Notes under the pieces: generated by a model
Database searches by the model: none
The model's input: only the letters and a program-made list of their open reading frames with translations
What the model was told of the DNA's origin: nothing
Program-made: the position numbers and the translations under genes
Source of the DNA: an uncultured virus (IMG/VR IMGVR_UViG_3300037488_003510)
Lineage: Duplodnaviria; Heunggongvirae; Uroviricota; Caudoviricetes
IMG/VR virus record: IMGVR_UViG_3300037488_003510
Direction: 5' to 3' (one strand)
DNA length: 64,000 bases
Shown here: in pieces, positions 1,084 to 57,026 of the stretch
How positions within the stretch are numbered: position 1 is the first letter of the stretch
Layout of the letters: each line of letters begins with the position of its first letter

Positions 1084-1452
1084 TTAGGCGTTTGAAAACG
1101 GTTTTATCGTGACGGTCAAGCCTGCGGCCCGCAGGATGGCAGCCATTCGCCGCGAAGCGTGGAAATTCGCCGAATGTACGATGATGCTGTCTGGGTACTG
1201 CTTTTTGTCGAGCCATTGGGCGATGAACTCGGCAACCATCGTACCGTCACCAGGATCGTCGGACCGGCTCTTGTTCTTGAAGTCCCCAAGGTCATGGTCG
1301 AGACACAGCAGATTGAAGCGAGGTTTCTCCTGGAGAGCAGTGATCGCCTCGTCGGCCGTGTAGACGTGGGTCAAGCTGGCATCGGGCAGAATGTGGCGGA
1401 ACACATCGTGGCGGTTTTCGTTGTCGTCCAGCACGAGAACTCGGATTTTCAC
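1084..1452 (-). CDS. Stand-alone receiver-like protein (cyclic-phosphate-processing REC type)
   Basis: VLDD, LDHDLG, DG-x-x-VAEFI and HSAN motifs. Confidence 0.75.
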   Translation of the reverse strand: MKIRVLVLDDNENRHDVFRHILPDASLTHVYTADEAITALQEKPRFNLLCLDHDLGDFKNKSRSDDPGDGTMVAEFIAQWLDKKQYPDSIIVHSANFHASRRMAAILRAAGLTVTIKPFSNA

Positions 1453-11713: not shown

Positions 11714-12322
11714 TCACATGCTTTTGAGTTGATTTAGCAGCGTAATGGCAGTGTTTACATCGAGGCGCAAGTGCAAGTCTACTTCGTTCTCATTGACGAC
11801 CTGAGCTTCCGACATGACACTGGCGAGCATCTTGAATGGTGAATGGTAGAAGGACACTGTGGTTTCCCTGGGCTTCAAGGCCACTTTTACCAACCGGGCG
11901 ATCTGCTGAGCGACCGCAGTTGTCTTATCCGCAAACTCATTCCAAGAGCGGTTTGAGGCTAACTCTTTTTCGAGGATGGGTAAGTATTCAGGTAGGAGGC
12001 GACGTTCGATATCGCGGGCAATCTGAGTTCCTGTCTTGTTGCCCGACACGGAGATCTTAGGCCGGCTCGCCGAGGACATTTTCCCCTCATGGTCCTTGGG
12101 GTAGTCGGTTGAGACAGTCAGCAAGTTCTTGTGGCGATCTGAATACACCTGGCTTTCGCCGATAGCGAGAATGGCCTGTGAGTGCTGTTCGCGGAGGTAG
12201 GCGCCGTCGCGGCCCCAGTCGTCTGGGAAGGGCTCCATTTCCCAGTCACCTGACAGGTGCTCGGCGATCTCCTCGATGGTGGCTTTGATAGCCAAGCGTT
12301 TTGCAACGTCCATATGGTTCAC
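11714..12322 (-). CDS. Hypothetical phage protein
   Basis: 202 aa; IARDIERRLLPEY. Confidence 0.65.
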   Translation of the reverse strand: MNHMDVAKRLAIKATIEEIAEHLSGDWEMEPFPDDWGRDGAYLREQHSQAILAIGESQVYSDRHKNLLTVSTDYPKDHEGKMSSASRPKISVSGNKTGTQIARDIERRLLPEYLPILEKELASNRSWNEFADKTTAVAQQIARLVKVALKPRETTVSFYHSPFKMLASVMSEAQVVNENEVDLHLRLDVNTAITLLNQLKSM

Positions 12323-13138
12323 CTTTTCCCAATCAAAAACTCAGCGAAGTCGAGTCCAGTTTTGGTTAGATCCTTCTCGATGAAGTAGGCGCCTGTCGGA
12401 CCTTTCAGTATTCGCCCTGGTGCTTCCTTCTTGCCGGAGAAGAGGGTGGCACCATCGTTCCAGGCAACAGTGTGACCACTGACGACAAGATCGTGGATGA
12501 GGGAGCCTCGCTCACCAACCACACGCGAGATTGAGACTGTCTTGTTTAGAGCAGCTAGCGCCTTGGCCTTTGCCGTAGGCAGACGCAAGGTACCGATGAA
12601 TCCATACCAGCTGTCATGTTCAGCGATCTGTCGAGCAAGTTCGGATCGCTTGGCGTCATATTCGAGTTCTGATTTGTAGTTCTTCTCGTCTCGTTGGATC
12701 TCTTGTTCGATCTCGCTCACTGGAATTACCTGAACGATGCTGGAATTGTTGGTCGATACTCCACATGAGAGTATTCCAGTCTCCGGGCGAGGAGCAATGA
12801 TTTTGATCGTTCGTGGACACCGCGTGGAGTTCCAGGAAAATCCAACATCAAACATGATGCTTATCCTCTCCAGTAGGCACCCCATTGAGCAGGTAGTGAG
12901 TCAACACCCCAGACACGATGCCCAGCACCACGGCTTTGGCCTCCATCTTCATAGGCGGCGCAGGCACCATCCTTCGCATGTGTTCACGCAGCTCCCCGAG
13001 GGTGCCATTGAGATTGGCGCCATTGGCGAGGTCGTGAGCGGCGGCGAGCTGGCAGAGGGTAGCCTTGCCTTCGCGGGCGTGGTCTAAGGTGGTTTTGACG
13101 AGGGCCACTTGCTCGGGGGTGAGAGATTTCATGGCGAT

Positions 13139-18603: not shown

Positions 18604-19337
18604 TTGTTATCCTTTGACGTGAAAGTCGCATGGTGCTTCACCGGGAAGAGGGTTCAAGGGGACATCCACGGTGAGGCTGCAACCAATGTCGTACTTCTTG
18701 AGATCTAGTCCGAGACCAGTGATCTTCATTGTTCGACCAAGCCATTCCGGAGGTCCGATATGTTCAGCTAGAATTGGTTTGAGAACATGACGGATGTATG
18801 ATCTGTCATTTGACTTCCAGACAACCTTTCGAACTTCGGTCCATTCAACGAGTTCTTTCTTGCCGTTTTTCATGGTCATAGTGAGAGTTGCCATTGCCAG
18901 CGGGTGACCTGATACCAGAGATTGAACAGGTTCAGGCTTTTTTACAGTGAGCATGTCGGCATCTCGTGCAATCTACTTGTCGTAGGACTTCAGGCCGAGA
19001 GAGCCGATTTTGAGCTTCGGGGAAATCTCGCGACACTCAATGTAGACATCATAGTCGGCTAGCCAGTTGCCCTCTTCATCAGCATCTCCATTACCATCTT
19101 CAACGCGATTGACAGAGAATCTGCCATCATCATCTGGCCAATAGAAGAAGTCATGCACTTTCATATCTAGACCAAAATGATCGGTGACGAAATTGAACAG
19201 ATCTGAGCGAGTCGGCTTGGCGTTTGAGATGACAGTCTTTTGCCACTCATCAACAAATCTGGGGCTTCCGGTGGCCCCATTTTCACTGTCCCAACTATCG
19301 ACAGTTTTTTCACACCTGAAAGAAATTTCGTACTTTT

Positions 19338-20351
19338 TCATCTCATGTCTCCTTGGTAAGCATCCGGCACAGCAACCGTGATTGTTTTTGGACGATTGAA
19401 AACCCATTTTACACCGAGGTATCCAGCGCCAGCACAAACCAGCAACCAGATCAAATTGCTACCCTTCGACACAGTCTTGCCAGGCTCATCGTAAGCCTCA
19501 GCGCGAGCTGTCTTCTTGGTCTCGACTACGCCATAGAGCCCAGCAGCTTCAATCCAAATCCGAGTAAGTCTGCGCAGGAATTCGTCGTAAACAGGATCGC
19601 CTGGACCGTAAGAGGCATCGGAATCGAGCGAGCGTGAATAGATAGAAGCCATACTTCGAGCTTCCGAAATAGCAGTTTTGAGAGCTTTGATGCTATTTTC
19701 TTCTGCTTCTTTCGCATCAGAGGGGAAAAGTGCTGAGGTAGCTATGGAAATAGGCGAGGTGGCAACCAATACTCGCCAGCCCCACCAAGGCATGTTTTCA
19801 TCCAGTAGTTTTTCACCACAGACAAGCCCAGCCTCAAGCTTGGCATGCATCTGCTTGACGCTCATCTTTTTGGGCATGGAGCGAAGTAGCGCAACCAACT
19901 CACCCATGTACGGAACTGGAATAATAGTCATGCCTTTTCCGACAAAGCGATCATGTAGCCGTCTAGACTCATTGAGAAACGAAGCAAACGTCTGCTTGTT
20001 CTCCGAACTCATCTGCCGGAAGACTCCCAATGCGCCATTGAGCTTGTCGGCAAAGGGAAGCCACGAAGTCATGAAGTTCGTCCAGGCGGTTTCGTCTTCC
20101 TTTGATAAGACTTTGTCGCCGTGGATTTTCCGAGCGTACTTGACACTGTCGTCGATGGTCTTCATCCATCGATTAGCAGCATCAATTTCAGTGAACTTGA
20201 TTTCGAGCACATCGAAGCCGCTGCTCGATCTCGGGGGATTTTTTTCCCACATGTCGCCCACGGCGATCCACTCGATGGAGCCCCTGGGAGGAGGCGCACC
20301 TCGGCCGTAGTTTCTGCCCTTCTGACTCCAGCTACGCAGATCGAAAGCCAT
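19338..20351 (-). CDS. C-terminally anchored helical protein with variant tag MAFDL...RNYGRG
   Basis: 337 aa; TM LIWLLVCAGAGYLGV. Confidence 0.7.
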   Translation of the reverse strand: MAFDLRSWSQKGRNYGRGAPPPRGSIEWIAVGDMWEKNPPRSSSGFDVLEIKFTEIDAANRWMKTIDDSVKYARKIHGDKVLSKEDETAWTNFMTSWLPFADKLNGALGVFRQMSSENKQTFASFLNESRRLHDRFVGKGMTIIPVPYMGELVALLRSMPKKMSVKQMHAKLEAGLVCGEKLLDENMPWWGWRVLVATSPISIATSALFPSDAKEAEENSIKALKTAISEARSMASIYSRSLDSDASYGPGDPVYDEFLRRLTRIWIEAAGLYGVVETKKTARAEAYDEPGKTVSKGSNLIWLLVCAGAGYLGVKWVFNRPKTITVAVPDAYQGDMR

Positions 20352-50459: not shown

Positions 50460-51548
50460 CTAGAACTTCAAGCAGAAGGTAGTGGGCTCGTTCTTGTCGT
50501 GAGGCCATATCGCCGCATGACAGTGCGGGCTCACGCAGCCGCCGTCTCCTGTCCATCCCCCTAAGTTGACGATCTTCCAGGGGTGGTTGTCGAGCCCCGA
50601 GACGTCTTTGTAGCCCCCGTAGTGGTCGTGACCGATGAAGAGGTAGCTCGGCATGGAGGCGTCACCCAAGGGCGCCGGGGTGGTCGGATCGCTCATCAAG
50701 GTGTTCACGTACCATTCCAGGTGGCTTCCTAGTCCATTTTGCTGCTTCTCAGAGTGTGAAACCACGGCCGGGTGAAACACGTCGGCTGGATAGCTCCAAC
50801 ACTTGGCAAAATCACTTCCGCTTCGAATGAGTGACCATTGTGTTTGACGCTCATGACTGTTGTAATCGTACAAAGCTGCCATGAGAGGCTCACTCTTCTT
50901 GTGCAAATCAAGAATGGTGTTCGGATCATTCAGATTGATGTCTGGCCTACCAATACCCGTTAAAACCTTCAGCCCAAAATACTTGGCTGCACTGTCTTGG
51001 CCGAGAATCAAATCATCCAATAGGTGTCCATGATGGAAGGTGATGTAAGGCCAGTAGCGTCCAATGGTGTAATTAGGATACGCAGCTCGAATGCGCCCAA
51101 ACTTGAAACGAGCTGGCCCGATCAAGTCTCTCAAGAAGTGATCTGAACCAGGGAGCATTTCCCCATTGTACTGTAGAAGAACATCCCCCTTGACGTTGTT
51201 GGTGAAGGGATTCAGGCTGCAATGGGTGGCTATCTTCTTCCACATGGAGTAGTCATGGTTGCCCCAGAGGATGATTAAGCTTTCAATTTTGATCTTACCT
51301 GTCAACTTCTCGAAGAACGACCTAGACACCTCGGAAACGAATGGCGAGAAGCCTTCCGGATCGAAACTGCCCGCATCCTTGGGTACGCACCCCTCGAAAC
51401 AGTCACCTGTCAATATCAGGCGATCTGTGCTGCCGTTGCATAGGCTCTCCAGCTGGTTCACGACATGCTCTTGGGCCATGGGGTCGTTGAGGACGCACAA
51501 GTCGTATCCTAGGTGTAGGTCGGAAACCGCGATGAAGTGTGCTGGCAT
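50460..51548 (-). CDS. Calcineurin-like metallophosphoesterase
   Basis: SDLHLG, GD, GNHD, HGH, GHDH, NLGGW. Confidence 0.85.
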   Translation of the reverse strand: MPAHFIAVSDLHLGYDLCVLNDPMAQEHVVNQLESLCNGSTDRLILTGDCFEGCVPKDAGSFDPEGFSPFVSEVSRSFFEKLTGKIKIESLIILWGNHDYSMWKKIATHCSLNPFTNNVKGDVLLQYNGEMLPGSDHFLRDLIGPARFKFGRIRAAYPNYTIGRYWPYITFHHGHLLDDLILGQDSAAKYFGLKVLTGIGRPDINLNDPNTILDLHKKSEPLMAALYDYNSHERQTQWSLIRSGSDFAKCWSYPADVFHPAVVSHSEKQQNGLGSHLEWYVNTLMSDPTTPAPLGDASMPSYLFIGHDHYGGYKDVSGLDNHPWKIVNLGGWTGDGGCVSPHCHAAIWPHDKNEPTTFCLKF

Positions 51549-52049: not shown

Positions 52050-52781
52050 CTATTCAGCTTCTAGAACGGTAGTCCAGTACGGTTTCCATTCCTCCGGAAC
52101 CCGTTGCATATCCATTTTCACGGTCATAGCTGGAAGATAGGATGGTTTGCGAGGTCTTTTGAGCAATTCCATACCGCCCCTGATAGAACCCACGCCCAGC
52201 TCGGATGCTTTGTCCATGACTTGATTCCGATCAGGGGAATTTTCATCGAACATGACGATAGCTTTTTCCTTGAGGACCGAGGCTGACGTGACCGACGGAT
52301 CTTCTCTAATGTCAGTGACGAACTGCTCAGCCAAAGCATTTGTCTCGAAGACGAAGTTTCGGCATTCCTTGACCTCAGCCGGTAGACGGTTGCTCTTTTG
52401 CTTGTTGCATGGAACGCAAGCCGTGACAATGTTCTCCCAGGTGGTTTTGCCTCCGCGAGAACGAGGAATAACGTGATCGAAGGTCAACTCTTCTGACTCA
52501 AATCGAGTTCCGCAGAACTGACACTTGGAGCCATCGCGAGTGTAGATGTTGAGTCGTGAGAACTTAACTCGAATGCGATCTCGCTTGAAGTTGTGCAGCA
52601 CACGAACAACCGAGGGCATAGGCCAGGCGCGACTCACTCCTTGGATGGTTCGGTCTTTGGAGTATTCGAGCACTTCGACCTTACCGAGGAAAAAGTCGCA
52701 AATGACCCGTTGCCAGTTTTCCACCCGGAGGGGGCGCATGCCTACGTCGAGGACAAGTACAGCGGCGTTCATGGAATTCAC
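52050..52781 (-). CDS. HNH endonuclease with internal insertion
   Basis: SRLNIYTRD..CQFCG...TFDHVIPRSRGG...WENIVTAC..CN..K. Confidence 0.9.
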   Translation of the reverse strand: MNSMNAAVLVLDVGMRPLRVENWQRVICDFFLGKVEVLEYSKDRTIQGVSRAWPMPSVVRVLHNFKRDRIRVKFSRLNIYTRDGSKCQFCGTRFESEELTFDHVIPRSRGGKTTWENIVTACVPCNKQKSNRLPAEVKECRNFVFETNALAEQFVTDIREDPSVTSASVLKEKAIVMFDENSPDRNQVMDKASELGVGSIRGGMELLKRPRKPSYLPAMTVKMDMQRVPEEWKPYWTTVLEAE

Positions 52782-52814
52782 CTTTTTCTACAGTTTTCGA
52801 GTGTTGGTTGATAG

Positions 52815-52897
52815 TGTCTCCCGAGGGAGTCGAACCCTCACGATCTTACGATCACCAGATTTTGAGTCTGACGTGACTGCCATTTCACCAGGGAGAC
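52815..52897 (-). tRNA. tRNA-Leu(CAA)
   Basis: Cloverleaf, loop CTCAAAA, long variable arm. Confidence 0.9.
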
Positions 52898-52923
52898 ATG
52901 AAGGATGTGTGGTGCGGAAAGGT

Positions 52924-53036
52924 AAGGTGAATCCGGCTCTCCACCGAATGAGGCCGGATAGTACCACGTCTCGCTCGCCGTTTTTCGAGGTACTGGATGG
53001 TTCCCCCGCGAGCTTCGGTGCCGACTGGTTCACCTT
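52924..53036 (-). ncRNA. Unknown structured RNA (possible double pseudoknot)
   Basis: 8-bp closing stem, two hairpins, two loop-pairing segments. Confidence 0.6.
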
Positions 53037-53037
53037 G

Positions 53038-53121
53038 TGCCGAAGACAGGAGTCGAACCTGCACGCTCTTTCAAGCAACCGATTTTAAGACGGCCGAGTC
53101 TACCATTCCATCCACTTCGGC
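53038..53121 (-). tRNA. tRNA-Leu(TAA)
   Basis: Loop CTTAAAA. Confidence 0.9.
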
Positions 53122-53127
53122 AAGTTG

Positions 53128-53210
53128 TGCGCCCAGGAGGAGTTGAACCTCCACGACCTTTCGGCCACTAGGTTCTGAGCCTAGCGTGACTGCCATTCCA
53201 CCATTGACGC
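53128..53210 (-). tRNA. tRNA-Leu(CAG)
   Basis: Loop CTCAGAA. Confidence 0.9.
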
Positions 53211-53224
53211 AAGTACAAACTGAG

Positions 53225-53307
53225 TGGTGGGCGTGGGAATCGAACCCACACGACCCGAGGGCCACAGGTTCCTAAGACCTGCGCGGCTGCCATTACGCCA
53301 GCCCACC
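53225..53307 (-). tRNA. tRNA-Leu(TAG)
   Basis: Loop CTTAGGA. Confidence 0.9.
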
Positions 53308-53326
53308 AAGAGACTGGTTATCATTG

Positions 53327-53409
53327 TGCGAATGGGGGGAGTCGAACCCCCACGAGGTTTCCCTCACCAGCACCTCAAGCTGGCGTGACTGCCATTCCAC
53401 CACACTCGC
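53327..53409 (-). tRNA. tRNA-Leu(GAG)
   Basis: Loop TTGAGGT. Confidence 0.9.
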
Positions 53410-53421
53410 ATGAAACTCTTG

Positions 53422-53493
53422 AGCCGACAGGGGAACTCGAATCCCCCTTTCCTGCTTACCAAGCAGGCGAGTCGCCATCTACTCATTGCCGGC
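53422..53493 (-). tRNA. tRNA-Thr(GGT)
   Basis: Loop TTGGTAA. Confidence 0.8.
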
Positions 53494-53507
53494 AAAATCT
53501 ATCAAAG

Positions 53508-53580
53508 AGCCCTCGGCGAGAATCGAACTCGCAGATCTTCGCTTAGGAGGCGAAGCCCGATTCCAGGTTCGGACAAGGGT
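53508..53580 (-). tRNA. tRNA-Arg(CCT)
   Basis: Loop CTCCTAA; A1-C72 mismatch. Confidence 0.8.
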
Positions 53581-53584
53581 AAAT

Positions 53585-53660
53585 TGGTGGACCCGCCCGG
53601 ATTTGAACCGGGAATGAACAGTTTATGAGACAGTTGCTTTAACCGTTAAGCCACAGGTCC
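53585..53660 (-). tRNA. tRNA-CAT, probably Ile2
   Basis: Loop CTCATAA, GGACCTG acceptor, encoded CCA. Confidence 0.75.
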
Positions 53661-53666
53661 ATTGAG

Positions 53667-53738
53667 CGCTCGCGAAGGGACTCGAACCCTCCTCAGTCGG
53701 TAGACAGCCGACCAGCCTCACCCGATGCTTACGCGAGC
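53667..53738 (-). tRNA. tRNA-Asp(GTC)
   Basis: Loop CTGTCTA, G73. Confidence 0.85.
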
Positions 53739-53766
53739 ATGAAAATCGAACGAGCCAAACAAATTG

Positions 53767-53837
53767 TCGGAGTGGAGGGAATTGAACCCCCATCAATGGT
53801 GTGTAGGACCATGGCCCTGCCGTTAGACGACACTCCG
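53767..53837 (-). tRNA. tRNA-Val(TAC), atypical
   Basis: Loop CCTACAC (C33), CGG acceptor, A73. Confidence 0.7.
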
Positions 53838-53838
53838 T

Positions 53839-53912
53839 TGGTACCAGCGGCGGGGAATGATCCCACTCCACTCGCTTATGAGGCGAACGTCCCATCCACT
53901 TAGGTCACTGGC
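53839..53912 (-). tRNA. tRNA-Met(CAT)
   Basis: Loop CTCATAA, encoded CCA, degenerate T-loop. Confidence 0.7.
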
Positions 53913-53920
53913 GTACTTTG

Positions 53921-53995
53921 CGTCCATGGAGGGACTCGAACCCCCACTATTCTCGCTTCGTAGGCGAGGACCTTATCCAATTAGGCAACATGGAC
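53921..53995 (-). tRNA. tRNA-Arg(ACG)
   Basis: Loop CTACGAA. Confidence 0.9.
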
Positions 53996-54002
53996 AAAAA
54001 AT

Positions 54003-54079
54003 TGGTACCCACGGAGGGACTCGAACTCCCAACATCTTGGTTCGAAGCCAAGTGCTCTGATCCATTGAGCTACGCGGGC
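54003..54079 (-). tRNA. tRNA-Arg(TCG)
   Basis: Loop CTTCGAA, encoded CCA. Confidence 0.9.
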
Positions 54080-54086
54080 ATTATTG

Positions 54087-54160
54087 TGCTCCCAGGGGGG
54101 CTCGAACCCCGCATTCCTGGCTTGAAGGGCCAGTGTCTTGACCAATTGGACGATGGGAGC
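54087..54160 (-). tRNA. tRNA-Glu(TTC)
   Basis: Loop CCTTCAA (C33). Confidence 0.85.
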
Positions 54161-54164
54161 GAAC

Positions 54165-54241
54165 TGGTGATCTCGGGGGGAGTTGAACCCCGCATTCCGG
54201 CAGTGAGAGTGCCGTGTCCTACCAGATTAGACGACGAGATC
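54165..54241 (-). tRNA. tRNA-Glu(CTC)
   Basis: Loop CTCTCAC, encoded CCA. Confidence 0.9.
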
Positions 54242-54460
54242 GTAGAACCAAGGTGATGTGAAGTGAGAGGTTGGAGTTGGCGGAGGTCGAACACTCGTTA
54301 CGGCCTCAGCAATGAAGTCTGGTCCCTTGTCTCGATGGTAGAACCGACTTTTCATGAACTCTATGAAGGTCCAGTAGCAAGCACCGCAGTAGACAACATC
54401 ATCGGAAAAGATGTGCCCACTTTGGGGATGGTATGGCCCCCCGCAAGCAAAGCATCGCAT
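54227..54460 (-). CDS. Small CxxC...CxxC protein inside the tRNA array
   Basis: MRCFACGGPYH...YCGAC; AGGGGG SD; fills the only large gap in the array. Confidence 0.65.
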   Translation of the reverse strand: MRCFACGGPYHPQSGHIFSDDVVYCGACYWTFIEFMKSRFYHRDKGPDFIAEAVTSVRPPPTPTSHFTSPWFYDLVV

Positions 54461-54477
54461 GAAAACCCCCTAGTTAG

Positions 54478-54551
54478 TGCTCCCGGCAGGAGTTGAACCT
54501 GCAATCTCGGGCTTAGAAGGCCCTTGCTCTGATCCATTGAGCCACGAGAGC
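54478..54551 (-). tRNA. tRNA-Arg(TCT)
   Basis: Loop CTTCTAA. Confidence 0.9.
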
Positions 54552-54559
54552 GTGATGAT

Positions 54560-54681
54560 TGGAGACCGTCGAAAGGTTGCCCTTTCCGAAAGGTATTCTA
54601 GCTAGTTTCCCGCGCGAGGTTCAAGCATGGCTTGTGAGCCGTCGATATCCTTCTAGTAGCCATTCTCTCGCCACAACGGTC
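54560..54681 (-). ncRNA. tRNA-like RNA with CCA end and expanded anticodon domain
   Basis: 7-bp acceptor GACCGTT/GACGGTC followed by T-CCA. Confidence 0.6.
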
Positions 54682-54686
54682 ATAAG

Positions 54687-54767
54687 CTCTCGGGGCAGGA
54701 CTCGAACCTGCAATGTTTTTCAACGCACGGTTAACAGCCGTGTGCCCTGCCATTAGGCGACCCGAGA
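54687..54767 (-). tRNA. tRNA-Asn(GTT) with enlarged variable loop
   Basis: Loop CTGTTAA, G73. Confidence 0.85.
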
Positions 54768-54771
54768 ATAG

Positions 54772-54843
54772 AGCTGGAGATCGGAGTCGGACCGACAACC
54801 TATGGTTTACAAAACCATTGCACTACCGTTGTGCTACTCCAGC
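54772..54843 (-). tRNA. tRNA-Thr(TGT)
   Basis: Loop TTTGTAA. Confidence 0.9.
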
Positions 54844-54844
54844 G

Positions 54845-54940
54845 TAGCGGGGGCCGGACTCGAACCGGCGAAACCGAGGTTATGAGCCTCGTGGGTTGCG
54901 ATCTGGCATTTCTGTCAGATCTCCTTTTCCCTACCCCGCA
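54845..54940 (-). tRNA. Initiator-like tRNA-fMet(CAT) with hairpin inserted in D-loop
   Basis: TGCGGGG/CCCCGCT with 1:72 mismatch; CGAGG-CTCATAA-CCTCG. Confidence 0.8.
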
Positions 54941-54941
54941 G

Positions 54942-55014
54942 AGCCCCTGTGGAGAATCGAACTCCATTCTTCGGCTTACGAGGCCGACGCATCACCAAAG
55001 CATGCTTCAGGGGC
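54942..55014 (-). tRNA. tRNA-Thr(CGT)
   Basis: Loop CTCGTAA. Confidence 0.85.
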
Positions 55015-55020
55015 AAGTTG

Positions 55021-55091
55021 AGCACCGTACTGGACTTGAACCAGCGTAGCCAGCTTGGAAGGCTGGAGCCCAACCCCTAGGCCAACGGTGC
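55021..55091 (-). tRNA. tRNA-Gly(TCC)
   Basis: Loop CTTCCAA, U73. Confidence 0.85.
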
Positions 55092-55101
55092 AAAAACGTA
55101 G

Positions 55102-55174
55102 AGCGAAGAACGGGACTCGAACCCGCATGGTCCACCTTGGCAAGGTGGTGCATAGCCAATTCTGCCATCTCCGC
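55102..55174 (-). tRNA. tRNA-Gly(GCC)
   Basis: Loop TTGCCAA, U73. Confidence 0.9.
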
Positions 55175-55320
55175 AAACCTGACAACAGAGCACGGGCTAA
55201 GACGGGTGATCGTCCCATGTTGCCCATGGTGAGCCAGGGAGAACCACAGCGACTTCTTCGAGGTGTTTTCTCTCCTGATCAGGTGAGAGGACTTTTCCCG
55301 AATACTGACTGTGATTTTTG

Positions 55321-55391
55321 AGGTTCCGACAGGACTTGAACCTGTGTAGCGGGTTTTGCAGACCCGAGCCTAGCCACTCGACCACGGAACC
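55321..55391 (-). tRNA. tRNA-Cys(GCA)
   Basis: Loop CTGCAAA, U73. Confidence 0.9.
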
Positions 55392-55397
55392 ATACTG

Positions 55398-55481
55398 AGG
55401 AGAGCAGCGTACTCGAAACGCAAGCTCGAAAGCTCCATCGGTTTAGCAAACCGCGACGACGCCCTAGTCGCTTTACTCTCC
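55398..55481 (-). tRNA. tRNA-Ser(GCT)
   Basis: Loop TTGCTAA, long variable arm. Confidence 0.85.
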
Positions 55482-55487
55482 AAAATG

Positions 55488-55571
55488 AGGAAGGCGAGAG
55501 AATCGAACTCCATGCCCGAGGGCACACACCGCTTTCGAAACGGGTGCAGCTCCATAGCTGCGTCACCTTCC
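55488..55571 (-). tRNA. tRNA-Ser(CGA)
   Basis: Loop TTCGAAA. Confidence 0.85.
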
Positions 55572-55576
55572 AACGG

Positions 55577-55660
55577 AGGAGAGCGAAGGGCACGATCCTT
55601 ATGCCCGAGGGCACGCACAGCTTTCCAGACTGGCCAGGCGCCATCGCCTGTTCACTCTCC
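55577..55660 (-). tRNA. tRNA-Ser(GGA)
   Basis: Loop CTGGAAA. Confidence 0.8.
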
Positions 55661-55665
55661 AATAG

Positions 55666-55749
55666 AGGAAGACGGAGGTGACGATCCCCAAGCCCAAGGG
55701 CTCCAGCCGCTTTCAAGGCGGTGCTCGGTCCACACCAAGTTCATCTTCC
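55666..55749 (-). tRNA. tRNA-Ser(TGA)
   Basis: Loop CTTGAAA. Confidence 0.8.
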
Positions 55750-55752
55750 GTC

Positions 55753-55826
55753 TGGCGGGTCGTGAGGGAATCGAACCCCCATAAGCAGATTTGGAGTTTG
55801 CTGTCCTACCGTTAGACGAACGACCC
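55753..55826 (-). tRNA. tRNA-Trp(CCA)
   Basis: Loop CTCCAAA, G73, encoded CCA. Confidence 0.9.
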
Positions 55827-55838
55827 AATAATTCGTTG

Positions 55839-55909
55839 TGGAGCCACTGAGAATTGAACTCAGATTAACAGACTGCCAGCCTGTTGTCCTCCCGTTGGAC
55901 GATGGCCCC
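55839..55909 (-). tRNA. tRNA-Ala(GGC)
   Basis: Loop CTGGCAG, G3:U70. Confidence 0.9.
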
Positions 55910-55914
55910 ATAGT

Positions 55915-56017
55915 GCCGGGTATCCTCCCGTTGGACGACTGACTTGCCACTAGCTGTATGCGAACGCATCTTGGTTATATGGCAAACCAGACCAGAATCG
56001 AACTGGCATCCCCCAGC
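55915..56017 (-). ncRNA. Circularly permuted tRNA-like RNA (YrlA/Y-RNA-like topology)
   Basis: T-arm and acceptor 3' strand precede acceptor 5' strand and D-arm. Confidence 0.7.
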
Positions 56018-56021
56018 GTCG

Positions 56022-56094
56022 TGGATCTGAAGGGACTCGAACCCTTTGCCTCCGGCTTGCAAAACCAGCGCTCTCCCAGTTGAGCTACAGACCC
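56022..56094 (-). tRNA. tRNA-Ala(TGC)
   Basis: Loop TTTGCAA, G3:U70. Confidence 0.9.
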
Positions 56095-56106
56095 GAATAC
56101 TTGTTG

Positions 56107-56179
56107 TCGGGGTGACAGGAATCGAACCTGCTGCCTCATGCTCCCAAAGCACGCGCTCTACCATGTGAGCTACACCCCG
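56107..56179 (-). tRNA. tRNA-Pro(TGG)
   Basis: Loop TTTGGGA. Confidence 0.9.
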
Positions 56180-56183
56180 GTAG

Positions 56184-56254
56184 GGTGACCAGTGGGGATC
56201 GAACCCACGATAGCTGGTTCACAGCCAGCCGCCTTACCACTTGGCTATGGCCAC
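56184..56254 (-). tRNA. tRNA-His(GTG)
   Basis: Loop CTGTGAA, C73; G-1 not encoded. Confidence 0.9.
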
Positions 56255-56256
56255 AG

Positions 56257-56328
56257 TCCTCTCGTTGGGAATTGAACCCACTTCGGTCGCCTATCATGCG
56301 ACTGCACTAACCAATGTGCTACGAGAGG
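56257..56328 (-). tRNA. tRNA-Ile(GAT)
   Basis: Loop ATGATAG. Confidence 0.8.
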
Positions 56329-56403
56329 TTGAGCAGTGTGCAGACGGTCTGTTGAACGTCCGGTTGACTTAAGAACCTGCACTGTTCATCAACAACTTTT
56401 TTG

Positions 56404-56476
56404 TCAGCGTGGCGGGAGTCGAACCCGCAGATTCTTGCTCCCGAAGCAAGCGGCTTACCATCAAGCCATCACGCTG
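56404..56476 (-). tRNA. tRNA-Pro(CGG)
   Basis: Loop TTCGGGA. Confidence 0.85.
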
Positions 56477-56480
56477 ATTG

Positions 56481-56551
56481 TTCCGGTGGAGCGAATCGAA
56501 CACTCGTAGATGGCTCCAAAGGCCACCGTCCTGCCATTGGACGACACCGGA
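56481..56551 (-). tRNA. tRNA-Gln(TTG)
   Basis: Loop CTTTGGA, U1-A72. Confidence 0.85.
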
Positions 56552-56555
56552 ATAG

Positions 56556-56629
56556 TTCCCGAGAGAGGAGTCGAACCTCTAACCAACGGAGTCAGAGTCC
56601 GCTACGCTTCCAGTTTGCGCCACTCGGGA
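56556..56629 (-). tRNA. tRNA-Gln(CTG)
   Basis: Loop CTCTGAC, U1-A72. Confidence 0.85.
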
Positions 56630-56639
56630 ATACTATCAG

Positions 56640-56712
56640 TGCCCCTCTCCAGAGTTGAACTGGACCCTCCGCGTTTTCAGCGCAGCGCTCGTCCCACGAG
56701 AGCTTAAGGGGC
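56640..56712 (-). tRNA. tRNA-Phe(GAA)
   Basis: Loop CTGAAAA. Confidence 0.85.
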
Positions 56713-56754
56713 ATAAAGACGGGACTGGTGATCCCGCCGCATGTAAACTATGAA

Positions 56755-56786
56755 GTTGTCAAAGAGTCCTCGGAAGCAAACCGAGG
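56755..56786 (-). promoter_or_regulatory. boxB/boxA-like antitermination signal
   Basis: Hairpin CCTCGG-N7-CCGAGG followed by CTCTTTGACAAC. Confidence 0.65.
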
Positions 56787-56792
56787 CTTGAG

Positions 56793-56864
56793 TGGGATGC
56801 CTGAGAATCGAACTCAGATTGACCGATTAAGAGCCGGCGGTTCTAACCGTTGAACTAGCAACCC
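56793..56864 (-). tRNA. tRNA-Lys(CTT)
   Basis: Loop CTCTTAA. Confidence 0.9.
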
Positions 56865-56868
56865 GTTG

Positions 56869-56941
56869 TGCTTGCGGAGGGACTCGAACCCTCAATGAGA
56901 GGCTTAAAAGGCCACTGCCCTAACCATTGGGCTACGCAAGC
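56869..56941 (-). tRNA. tRNA-Lys(TTT)
   Basis: Loop CTTTTAA. Confidence 0.9.
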
Positions 56942-56947
56942 GGAGTG

Positions 56948-57026
56948 TGGGTGAGGGGGGAATCGAACCCTCCTTGCCGAGGCCACTGGTTTACAGCCAG
57001 CTCCCACTCCATGTGAGATCTCACCC
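56948..57026 (-). tRNA. tRNA-Tyr(GTA)
   Basis: Loop CTGTAAA, variable arm. Confidence 0.85.

Follow-up and report, generated by a model that had tools for sequence, protein, structure and literature searches.

What does a phage tRNA array encode in a slot that looks like a tRNA gene from its two ends and is left uncalled by ARAGORN? The question arises in the window analysed here, which is the whole 64,000-nt stretch of the IMG/VR virus record IMGVR_UViG_3300037488_003510. An initial annotation described a 122-nt, CCA-ended tRNA mimic in which a large domain replaces the anticodon loop, and proposed either a tRNA-like non-coding RNA or an intron-containing tRNA. We examined the locus in its array, in an ortholog and against other readings of the same conserved bases.

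A 122-nt element in a phage tRNA array

The contig is phage-like and has an HNH endonuclease, an amidase_2 cell-wall hydrolase, a GT2 glycosyltransferase and a methyltransferase among its proteins; 13 of the 14 large window proteins tested had no PHROG family match. In the protein cluster to which it belongs, the contig is recorded with a length of 128,897 nt. ARAGORN places 34 tRNA genes at 52814–57026, all on the minus strand, and 29 of these were confirmed by Rfam at gathering score. Several irregular tRNAs of the array were missed by ARAGORN. In a pond-metagenome DNA run (X1; share 0.05, 80% likeness), contigs with related tRNA arrays were present in all 30 bins.

The 122-nt RNA lies on the minus strand in a 134-nt gap (54552–54685) between tRNA-Asn(GUU) and tRNA-Arg(UCU). 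Its G1 is found 5 nt past the discriminator base of tRNA-Asn and 4 nt past the conserved C74 of that tRNA, and the distances to the two flanking tRNAs (5 nt and 8 nt) are within the usual spacing range of the array. Just past tRNA-Arg(UCU), at 54227–54460, a small, conserved zinc-ribbon ORF is encoded, for which we found no significant Pfam match (best LIM, E 0.0099, 16.6 bits versus a cutoff of 22.9 bits), no PHROG and, in the Atlas, matches to unnamed viral clusters only.

Every element listed by the initial annotation (acceptor stem, U73, CCA, D-like arm, T-like arm and central stem) was found at 54560–54681 on the minus strand. The features of the gap and its neighbours are as follows, with RNA position p corresponding to window position 54682 − p:

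54686–54767, minus strand: tRNA-Asn(GUU), the upstream neighbour (ARAGORN); CUUAU separates its 3' end from G1 of the RNA
54560–54681, minus strand: the 122-nt tRNA-like RNA (from sequence, minimum free energy (MFE) structure and ortholog)
54675–54681, minus strand: 5' strand of the acceptor-like stem, GACCGUU (RNA 1–7), pairing with 54564–54570
54656–54674, minus strand: D-like hairpin GUGGC-GAGAGAAUG-GCUAC (RNA 8–26), abutting the acceptor 5' strand without a linker
54645–54653, minus strand: 5' strand of the central stem, GAAGG-A-UAU (RNA 29–37), pairing with 54589–54596 (AUA, then CCUUU)
54627–54642, minus strand: inner anticodon-arm-like hairpin ACGGC-UCACAA-GCCAU (RNA 40–55), drawn by ortholog comparison
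54609–54620, minus strand: invariant block ACCUCGCGCGGG (RNA 62–73), the same letters in both orthologs
54595–54624, minus strand: sigma-70-like motif TTGAAC-18-TAGAAT inside the RNA, from a motif search
54590–54601, minus strand: invariant block CUAGAAUACCUU (RNA 81–92), the same in both orthologs
54571–54586, minus strand: T-like hairpin GAAAGG-GCAA-CCUUUC (RNA 96–111), directly abutting the acceptor 3' strand
54560–54570, minus strand: acceptor 3' strand GACGGUC (54564–54570), U73 (54563) and CCA (54560–54562); UCCA in both orthologs
54477–54551, minus strand: tRNA-Arg(UCU), the downstream neighbour, starting 8 nt past the CCA of the RNA (ARAGORN)

The acceptor-like stem (GACCGUU/GACGGUC) has 7 bp including U7.G66, and the central stem has 8 pairs and encloses 48 nt, close to the 'about 50 nt' estimated before. 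RNAfold gave a four-way junction as the MFE structure of the window copy (−36.8 kcal/mol), which departs from the drawn fold within the inner domain, GGCU having other partners there. In the window copy the four outer helices consist of standard pairs throughout (26 of 26). Its inner hairpins are degenerate, the first with one C.A mismatch and a 6-nt loop and a second with 3 of 7 pairs retained. The folding energy of the window copy is ordinary (z = −1.27), with 22 of 200 shuffles equal or better, and taken alone the window sequence therefore has a fold indistinguishable from chance.

A colinear ortholog and the conservation of the fold

We reached an ortholog through a 215-aa protein whose gene lies 1.2 kb upstream of the array. 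This protein has 22 relatives, most of them from ENA and Logan assemblies, and an alignment of relatives retrieved the contig of the ortholog. The contig in question, L044, is a 194,181-nt IMG/VR viral contig whose counterpart of the 215-aa protein is ~49% identical. Its array of 38 ARAGORN tRNAs is colinear with that of the window and keeps the order Lys, Lys, Phe, Gln, Gln, Pro, Ile, His, Pro, Ala ... Thr, Thr, Asn, gap, Arg-UCU. The gap between Asn and Arg-UCU is 138 nt in L044 and can be aligned with the window gap; the ortholog in this same slot, L044:15538–15659, is likewise exactly 122 nt long. Common to both copies are the UUAU leader, U at −1, G at +1 and the 3' UCCA. Among the neighbouring tRNAs, a full CCA is encoded in 4 of the 34 ARAGORN tRNAs of the window versus 10 of the 38 in the L044 array, and position 74 is C in 37 of 38 L044 tRNAs and, as judged by eye, in nearly all window tRNAs.

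Computed independently, the MFE structure of the L044 copy (−47.3 kcal/mol, z = −1.59) agreed in architecture with the window copy and contained both the 7-bp acceptor-like stem and the central stem GAAGG.../...CCUUC. The acceptor-like stem consists of standard pairs throughout (7 of 7) in either ortholog, with pair 2 being A-U in the window and U.G in L044 and pair 6 U-A and U.G, respectively. The D-like hairpin of L044 (GUGGUC-GUCA-GACCAC) has a 6-bp stem and a tetraloop, compared with 5 bp and a 9-nt loop in the window. Hairpin loops vary freely between the copies, those of the D-like arm (9 nt versus 4 nt) being unalignable; within the D-like stem, pair 5 is C-G in the window and U-A in L044, and pair 3 is G.U and G-C. 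Seven of the 8 central-stem pairs are invariant; the copies differ at the basal pair (G.U in the window, G-C in L044) and at the bulged base (A and C, respectively). The T-like hairpin of L044 (GGUGGG-GUAAU-CCUGCC) is changed on both sides at pairs 2 and 3 and on one side at pair 4, with pairing kept in the MFE register. This register is ambiguous: one drawing has 6 bp and a GUAAU loop, the other a GUAA loop together with a bulge and one U-U mismatch. Under the MAFFT alignment five of the six pairs form and there is one bulge.

The ortholog also led to a revised drawing of the inner domain. The GGCU-CACA-AGCC hairpin of the initial annotation is present as sequence, but is better drawn as a 5-bp A[C/U]GGC/GCCAU stem with a 6- or 7-nt loop; L044 (AUGGC-CUAAUAA-GCCAU) has this stem perfect, with the 7-nt loop. 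The anticodon-like arm is followed in L044 by a 7-bp hairpin containing ACCUCGCGCGGG. By eye, the window can form 3 of those pairs, and the conservation of this block is therefore at the level of sequence.

Helices were mapped by hand and pairs were counted by script. Nine of the 31 pairs differ between the copies, eight of these nine are standard in both, and four are changed on both sides, namely acceptor pair 2 (A-U to U.G), D-like pair 5 (C-G to U-A) and T-like pairs 2 (A-U to G-C) and 3 (A-U to U.G). The C.A mismatch of the window inner hairpin is the one broken pair among the 31. In the MAFFT alignment 96.8% of the cells of the structure were paired, versus 25.0–47.5% when the 3' partners were slid by 1–3 columns, and the four pairs changed on both sides compare with 0–1 in these slid controls. 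The observed pairing values were reached in 32 of 500 shuffles, which is the floor for two sequences; because the test has two sequences its strength is limited to about 1 in 16, and with n = 2 the individual changes are not assignable to a lineage.

Across the whole gap 104 of 144 columns are identical (72%), and 20 orthologous tRNA pairs range from 56 to 93%, with a median of 74%. The 145-nt Cys/Gly and 74-nt Pro/Ile spacers of the window correspond to 6 and 12 nt in L044. The homolog comparison suggested by the initial annotation thus yielded a conserved ortholog with compensatory changes (one ortholog, two sequences). Judging from these two sequences, compensatory substitutions preserve the acceptor-like, D-like and T-like helices of the fold, and we have high confidence that the pattern, as far as two sequences indicate, is that of a structured RNA under purifying selection, unlike a neutral spacer.

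No tRNA or tmRNA model recognised the RNA in the Rfam and ARAGORN checks that had been proposed for it. ARAGORN made no tRNA or tmRNA call at 54552–54685, and Rfam at gathering score gave no match on the 122-nt RNA. At E ≤ 10, no tRNA-clan match fell at 54552–54685 in a search of 4.7 kb, and the tRNA and tRNA-Sec models returned nothing on 151-nt slices of either ortholog. The sole Rfam row on the RNA at E ≤ 10 was CRISPR-DR54 on the T-like hairpin, with 21 bits versus a threshold of 39 bits. YrlA / Y RNA-like (RF02553) gave weak rows on real array tRNAs and none at 54552–54685.

Searches for further copies used sequence, patterns, a covariance model and neighbouring proteins. When both orthologs were compared by blastn with 50,697 phage records, we obtained no match or 19–22-nt noise. 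Exact 23-nt and 26-nt patterns had 0 matches each in viral_contigs, and a degenerate pattern of both invariant blocks matched the L044 contig only in that collection; the same pattern had nine matches in genome_contigs, all in unrelated coding sequence. A covariance model built on both copies (R1), which scores 146.4 bits on the window and 159.1 bits on L044 by construction, detected no second copy in 246,675 bases from 12 sources (one 14.5-bit row, in L017, E 0.19) and none over the whole 194-kb record G001. The metallophosphatase encoded at 50460–51548 has 87 relatives and 42 metagenome loci; these loci had no adjoining array, with 0–1 tRNA in each of the 27 scanned, and synteny was poor. 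Used as single-sequence queries, the amidase and HNH proteins gave no loci, nor did alignment A2 when searched in genome_contigs, and tblastn of three window proteins against the phage records gave two distant matches or none. We conclude that the RNA family is absent from Rfam 15 and from the phage records searched and that, by the evidence of its sequence, it is a real conserved tRNA-like RNA gene.

Rejected identities and rival explanations

Both orthologs have the 7-bp acceptor stem, the discriminator base and the CCA of a tRNA. We rejected a decoding tRNA on the remaining parts. There is no T-loop and no UUCRANY, the 6-bp T-like stem being closed by GCAA in the window and GUAA(U) in L044; the D-like loops (GAGAGAAUG versus GUCA) have nothing conserved and no G18 G19 elbow; and the sole anticodon-arm-like hairpin sits beyond an extra 8-bp stem, with the loop UCACAA in one copy and CUAAUAA in the other. 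Because the T-loop/D-loop elbow is missing, and the anticodon-like hairpin is displaced by the 8-bp stem and not conserved, the RNA should be unable to decode.

The statement that this is not a minimal tmRNA also held: both copies have C-G at position 3:70 and lack a T-loop, none of the detectors gave a match, and no tag or other reading frame is conserved across the 1–2-nt indels. A single tmRNA-clan row was returned for the array, a fragment of 10 bits at 53516–53532 and outside the RNA. The two identities offered by the initial annotation fared differently. A tRNA-like non-coding RNA agrees with the compensated fold, the tRNA slot and the UCCA, whereas the intron-containing tRNA was not supported: an anticodon loop would not remain after excision of the inner domain, there is no T-loop, and the anticodon-like loop varies between the orthologs. 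To our knowledge, every tRNA intron known in bacteria belongs to group I and has a length of a few hundred nt (about 200 nt at the least), a further point against the intron reading.

Four further candidates were discarded. A CRISPR-repeat mimic is contradicted by the subthreshold score of the CRISPR-DR54 row and by the sequence of the matched hairpin, which is not conserved in L044. The invariant blocks occur once in the window, against a repeated phage promoter or protein-binding motif; the missing T-loop speaks against an attP site or a copy of a tRNA 3' end; and a 20-codon ORF was rejected on a frame that is not conserved between the copies.

The conserved bases themselves raise a serious rival. 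The strongest sequence conservation, in ACCUCGCGCGGG and CUAGAAUACCUU, is unpaired or inconsistently paired and overlaps the promoter-like motif, with CUAGAAUACCUU spanning the −10-like TAGAAT as well as most of the 3' strand of the central stem (54589–54596). The core could be a DNA-level, sigma-70-type internal promoter for the downstream half of the array, from tRNA-Arg(UCU) and the zinc-ribbon ORF onward, and the helices a cis-acting RNA structure (a 5' stabiliser hairpin or a processing stem) in place of a free trans-acting RNA. We regard this account as unlikely, if well short of negligible. TTGAAC-18-TAGAAT is the only promoter-like match in 6 kb of array on either strand, its −10-like hexamer falls within an invariant block, and L044 has CTGACC-17-TAGAAT at the orthologous place; the predicted start, ~7 nt past the −10, would be at the foot of the T-like hairpin. 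Since a match is expected in only ~3% of cases for a given 122 nt on a given strand (from ~2.8 per 12 kb of strand), we keep the internal promoter as a serious rival or as a second function, which can coexist with a tRNA-like RNA. On the other side, the number of promoter matches is not above that in shuffles (1 versus a mean of 2.8, and 2 versus a mean of 4.2 with a loosened pattern), the motif is not repeated elsewhere in the window, and we know of no sigma-70 promoter feature that corresponds to an invariant GC-rich spacer. A promoter would also leave unexplained the compensated acceptor-like and D-like helices upstream of it and the pairing of the 5' end with the 3' end.

The L044 copy lends itself to another reading, in which the element is a tRNA gene of an irregular kind, class-II or allo-tRNA-like, and either in decay or exapted; in one variant the L044 copy may still function as an unusual tRNA, with the window copy as a relic. 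The anticodon-like arm in L044 is a perfect 5-bp stem with the 7-nt loop CUAAUAA, including U33 and A37, the 7-bp hairpin stands where a long variable arm would be, and the 6-bp D-stem with its tetraloop is as in tRNA-Sec and in the allo-tRNAs described in PMC5389517. A non-translating allo-tRNA(UAU) with possible five-stem junctions is reported in the same paper. Four tRNA-Ser of the RNA's own array are of the 8/4 or 9/3 type, and tRNAs have been lost elsewhere in the window array, as seen from fragments at 55910–56020 and from Ala-CGC, Arg-CCG and Val-GAC, which are absent from the window array and present in L044. Several observations make a tRNA gene of this kind very unlikely, however: the T-loop is absent from both copies, the acceptor/T-like branch has 7 + 6 = 13 bp and not 12, the anticodon-like arm on its extra 8-bp stem is too far from the CCA to decode, and the 'anticodon' is inconsistent between the copies (AAU versus CAC or none). 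In addition, 26 of 26 outer-helix pairs are standard in the window copy, unlike the outcome of even decay, and the Rfam tRNA and tRNA-Sec models are silent on the 151-nt slice at E ≤ 10. Energy z-scores of only −1.3 to −1.6 would fit a spacer that folds by chance, and a 20-codon frame that is open in both copies, from a conserved AUG at −2 to UGA at RNA 59–61, would fit a mini-ORF. We consider either extremely improbable, given conservation at the level of tRNAs while other spacers were lost in L044, and substitutions that are compensatory. An open frame of 20 codons is expected in about 38% of random sequences, the only SD-like bases are 3 nt from the AUG and within the acceptor stem of tRNA-Asn, and the 1–2-nt indels shift the frame, so that the C-terminal third differs (RRLTSHA versus RWPNKPCS).

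A proposed non-decoding RNA and its relation to known systems

On balance we lean towards a conserved, non-decoding tRNA-like small RNA that forms one unit of the phage's polycistronic tRNA array, and we lean to the same degree towards its excision as a free tRNA-like RNA. In the structure proposed, the acceptor-like stem would stack on the T-like hairpin to give a 13-bp (7 + 6) helix. Going by what is known of tRNA processing, U at −1, G1-C72, NCCA and the 13-bp helix would together offer RNase P a minimal substrate for forming the 5' end, and the host enzymes that process the neighbouring tRNAs would generate the 3' end. As a substrate for RNase P and for tRNA 3'-end processing, the RNA would then be released as a discrete molecule of ~122 nt alongside the tRNAs. 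It counts against this scheme that RNase P and the CCA-adding enzyme may handle poorly an RNA that has no T-loop/D-loop elbow.

As to function, we can only speculate that such an RNA would most likely display a tRNA acceptor end while staying out of translation. It might compete for, or act as a decoy of, host factors whose target is the acceptor end, tRNA-targeting defence toxins among them; or it might carry an amino acid for non-ribosomal use. The current view of large phage tRNA arrays is mostly that they counter host defences which cleave tRNAs. A wider proposition, distinctly unlikely in our view, is that phage arrays repeatedly evolve acceptor-end mimics, with this RNA as the cloverleaf type, a charged or 3'-bound decoy or sink for factors or toxins that attack acceptor ends. 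As part of that proposition, the 13-bp acceptor/T-like helix would be likened to that of tRNA-Sec, which keeps tRNA-Sec from EF-Tu, and the zinc-ribbon protein might act with the RNA.

The interest of the locus is in its readable architecture, which combines an acceptor end and CCA, no decoding parts and an invariant inner block. If it is true that such mimics decoy toxins aimed at the acceptor end, they would make up a new class of RNA-based anti-defence factors, and if the inner block is a promoter, it would show how long tRNA arrays are subdivided for transcription.

The preferred reading, a non-decoding tRNA-like RNA, has partial counterparts in several known systems. Like tmRNA, the 122-nt RNA has an acceptor stem with CCA and a larger domain in place of the 'anticodon arm'; unlike tmRNA, it has C-G at 3:70, no T-loop, no conserved tag frame and an inner domain of only 48 nt. 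Plant-virus tRNA-like structures share the acceptor-like end with an encoded CCA and have no decoding ability, but form their acceptor arm via a pseudoknot, whereas the 122-nt RNA would do so via an ordinary 5'-3' stem in a four-way junction.

The allo-tRNAs come closer in setting. In Mukai et al. (2017, PMC5389517), 8/4 and 9/3 allo-tRNAs are described from Acidobacteria and from phage tRNA clusters, and some species are suggested to be inactive in translation. The likeness comprises peat or soil metagenome settings, phage tRNA clusters and extra stems beyond the cloverleaf, and the long D-stem and tetraloop of the L044 copy, as opposed to the 5 bp and 9-nt loop of the window copy, resemble those of allo-tRNAs (PMC5389517). 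In allo-tRNAs the branch has 12 bp, the T-loop has 7 nt and the anticodon arm is in its normal place, in contrast to the 13 bp, 4–5-nt loop and displaced hairpin of the 122-nt RNA. Because the D-like arm of L044 and its arm-plus-hairpin inner domain recall allo-tRNAs, the RNA may descend from such a tRNA.

Phage T4 provides the nearest parallel in context, since its RNAC (species 1, 139 nt) and RNAD (species 2, 119 nt) are small, stable non-tRNA RNAs within a phage tRNA cluster. Both T4 RNAs are processed by RNase P. They adjoin tRNA-Arg(UCU), as is the case here, with the T4 RNAs downstream of this tRNA and the 122-nt RNA upstream of it. RNAC has a tRNA-type T-arm near its 3' end with a canonical UUCGAAU T-loop, whereas the window RNA has a GNRA-type loop, and R1, run with filters off on an 8-kb stretch of T4, found nothing at rnaC or rnaD (best 8.4 bits, E 0.22, elsewhere). 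The roles of RNAC and RNAD are still given as unknown in PMC3014915 and PMC9697503. By analogy of place and kind, the 122-nt RNA is comparable to RNAC and RNAD in concept and context, and it is structurally distinct from them.

Irregular serine and CAU tRNA genes

The tRNA array contains genes of unusual form, listed here with their strand and their detection.

55392-55752, minus strand: four tRNA-Ser genes in tandem, anticodons UGA, GGA, CGA and GCU
54844-54940, minus strand: 97-nt tRNA with anticodon CAU (Rfam tRNA model, 19.6 bits); counterpart at L044:15271-15367
53838-53919, minus strand: second CAU tRNA (Rfam, 24.8 bits at 53842-53912, sub-threshold)
53585-53660: Met-CAU tRNA, listed for comparison

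ARAGORN, run on the window, called none of the four tRNA-Ser genes, and Rfam gave a weak tRNA-Sec match (35.2 bits) for only one of them. They fold with an acceptor stem of 8-9 bp, a T-stem of 3-4 bp, a 6-bp D-stem closed by a tetraloop and a long variable arm, and all four carry U73. The predicted structure is that of an 8/4 or 9/3 'allo-tRNA', a form which the account of irregular tRNAs by Mukai et al. (2017; PMC5389517) includes from Acidobacteria and some phages.

The 97-nt CAU tRNA, also without an ARAGORN call, holds a hairpin insert of about 25 nt (GAUCUG...CAGAUC) in its D-loop. Its copy in L044, a locus with a colinear array on a 194-kb IMG/VR viral contig, is 78% conserved and retains this hairpin, with an A-U pair changed to G.U; a contig from a pond metagenome also spans the gene with few changes. 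The second CAU tRNA has a G1.U72 pair and an encoded ACCA. With the Met-CAU tRNA the array has three CAU tRNAs, which are perhaps the elongator Met, initiator and Ile2 species.

Encoded 3' ends, apparent tRNA loss and spacers

In the arrays at window 52814-57026 and L044:11510-20310, nearly all tRNA genes of both phages (37/38 for L044) have an encoded C74 following the discriminator base. The full CCA is encoded by a minority (4/34 in the window, 10/38 in L044), and the set of tRNAs encoding it differs between the two phages.

56183-56254, minus strand: tRNA-His, 93% identical to the L044 copy
55910-56020, minus strand: tRNA debris
55175-55319, 56329-56402, 52898-53036 and 56713-56791, minus strand: other long array spacers

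The window tRNA-His has C73 and does not encode G-1, the gene being preceded by U. The debris consists of a T-arm and a 3' acceptor strand ending in GCCA, followed by a D-arm-like copy of the adjoining tRNA-Ala(GGC). Because the matching interval of L044 holds an intact tRNA-Ala(CGC), this tRNA seems, from the sequence comparison, to have been lost from the window array. Arg-CCG and Val-GAC, both present in L044, are likewise missing from the window array.

The spacers of 145 nt (55175-55319) and 74 nt (56329-56402) are missing in L044, and the 79-nt Lys/Phe spacer (56713-56791) is 65% conserved, with two hairpins common to both arrays. In the 139-nt spacer preceding Leu-CAA (52898-53036), the 5' end, AAGGUGAA, pairs with UUCACCUU near the 3' end.

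Protein genes

1084-1452, minus strand: 122-aa protein with a Pfam cREC_REC match (E 9.7e-15)
54227-54460, minus strand: 77-aa ORF (MRCFACGG...YCGACY); L044:15759-16025
52050-52781, minus strand: HNH endonuclease gene; L044:19650-20174

The cREC_REC (cyclic-phosphate processing receiver) domain has been tied by Aravind's group to jumbo-phage RNA-repair and NAD-centred conflict systems (PMC7824862), a link that may matter for a phage that devotes resources to supplying tRNAs.

Within the array, the 77-aa ORF directly follows tRNA-Arg(UCU) and overlaps into the next tRNA gene. It has GGGGG 6 nt upstream of its AUG, encodes two CxxC pairs and is conserved in L044. Pfam gave no significant match (best LIM, E 0.0099, below cutoff), PHROG no family, and the Atlas unnamed viral clusters only.

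In both phages the HNH endonuclease gene is the immediate downstream neighbour of the array. Gaps in the L044 array hold further zinc-finger or HNH-like ORFs (e.g. 12290-12934 and 18926-19498), resembling the placement of segB inside the T4 tRNA cluster.
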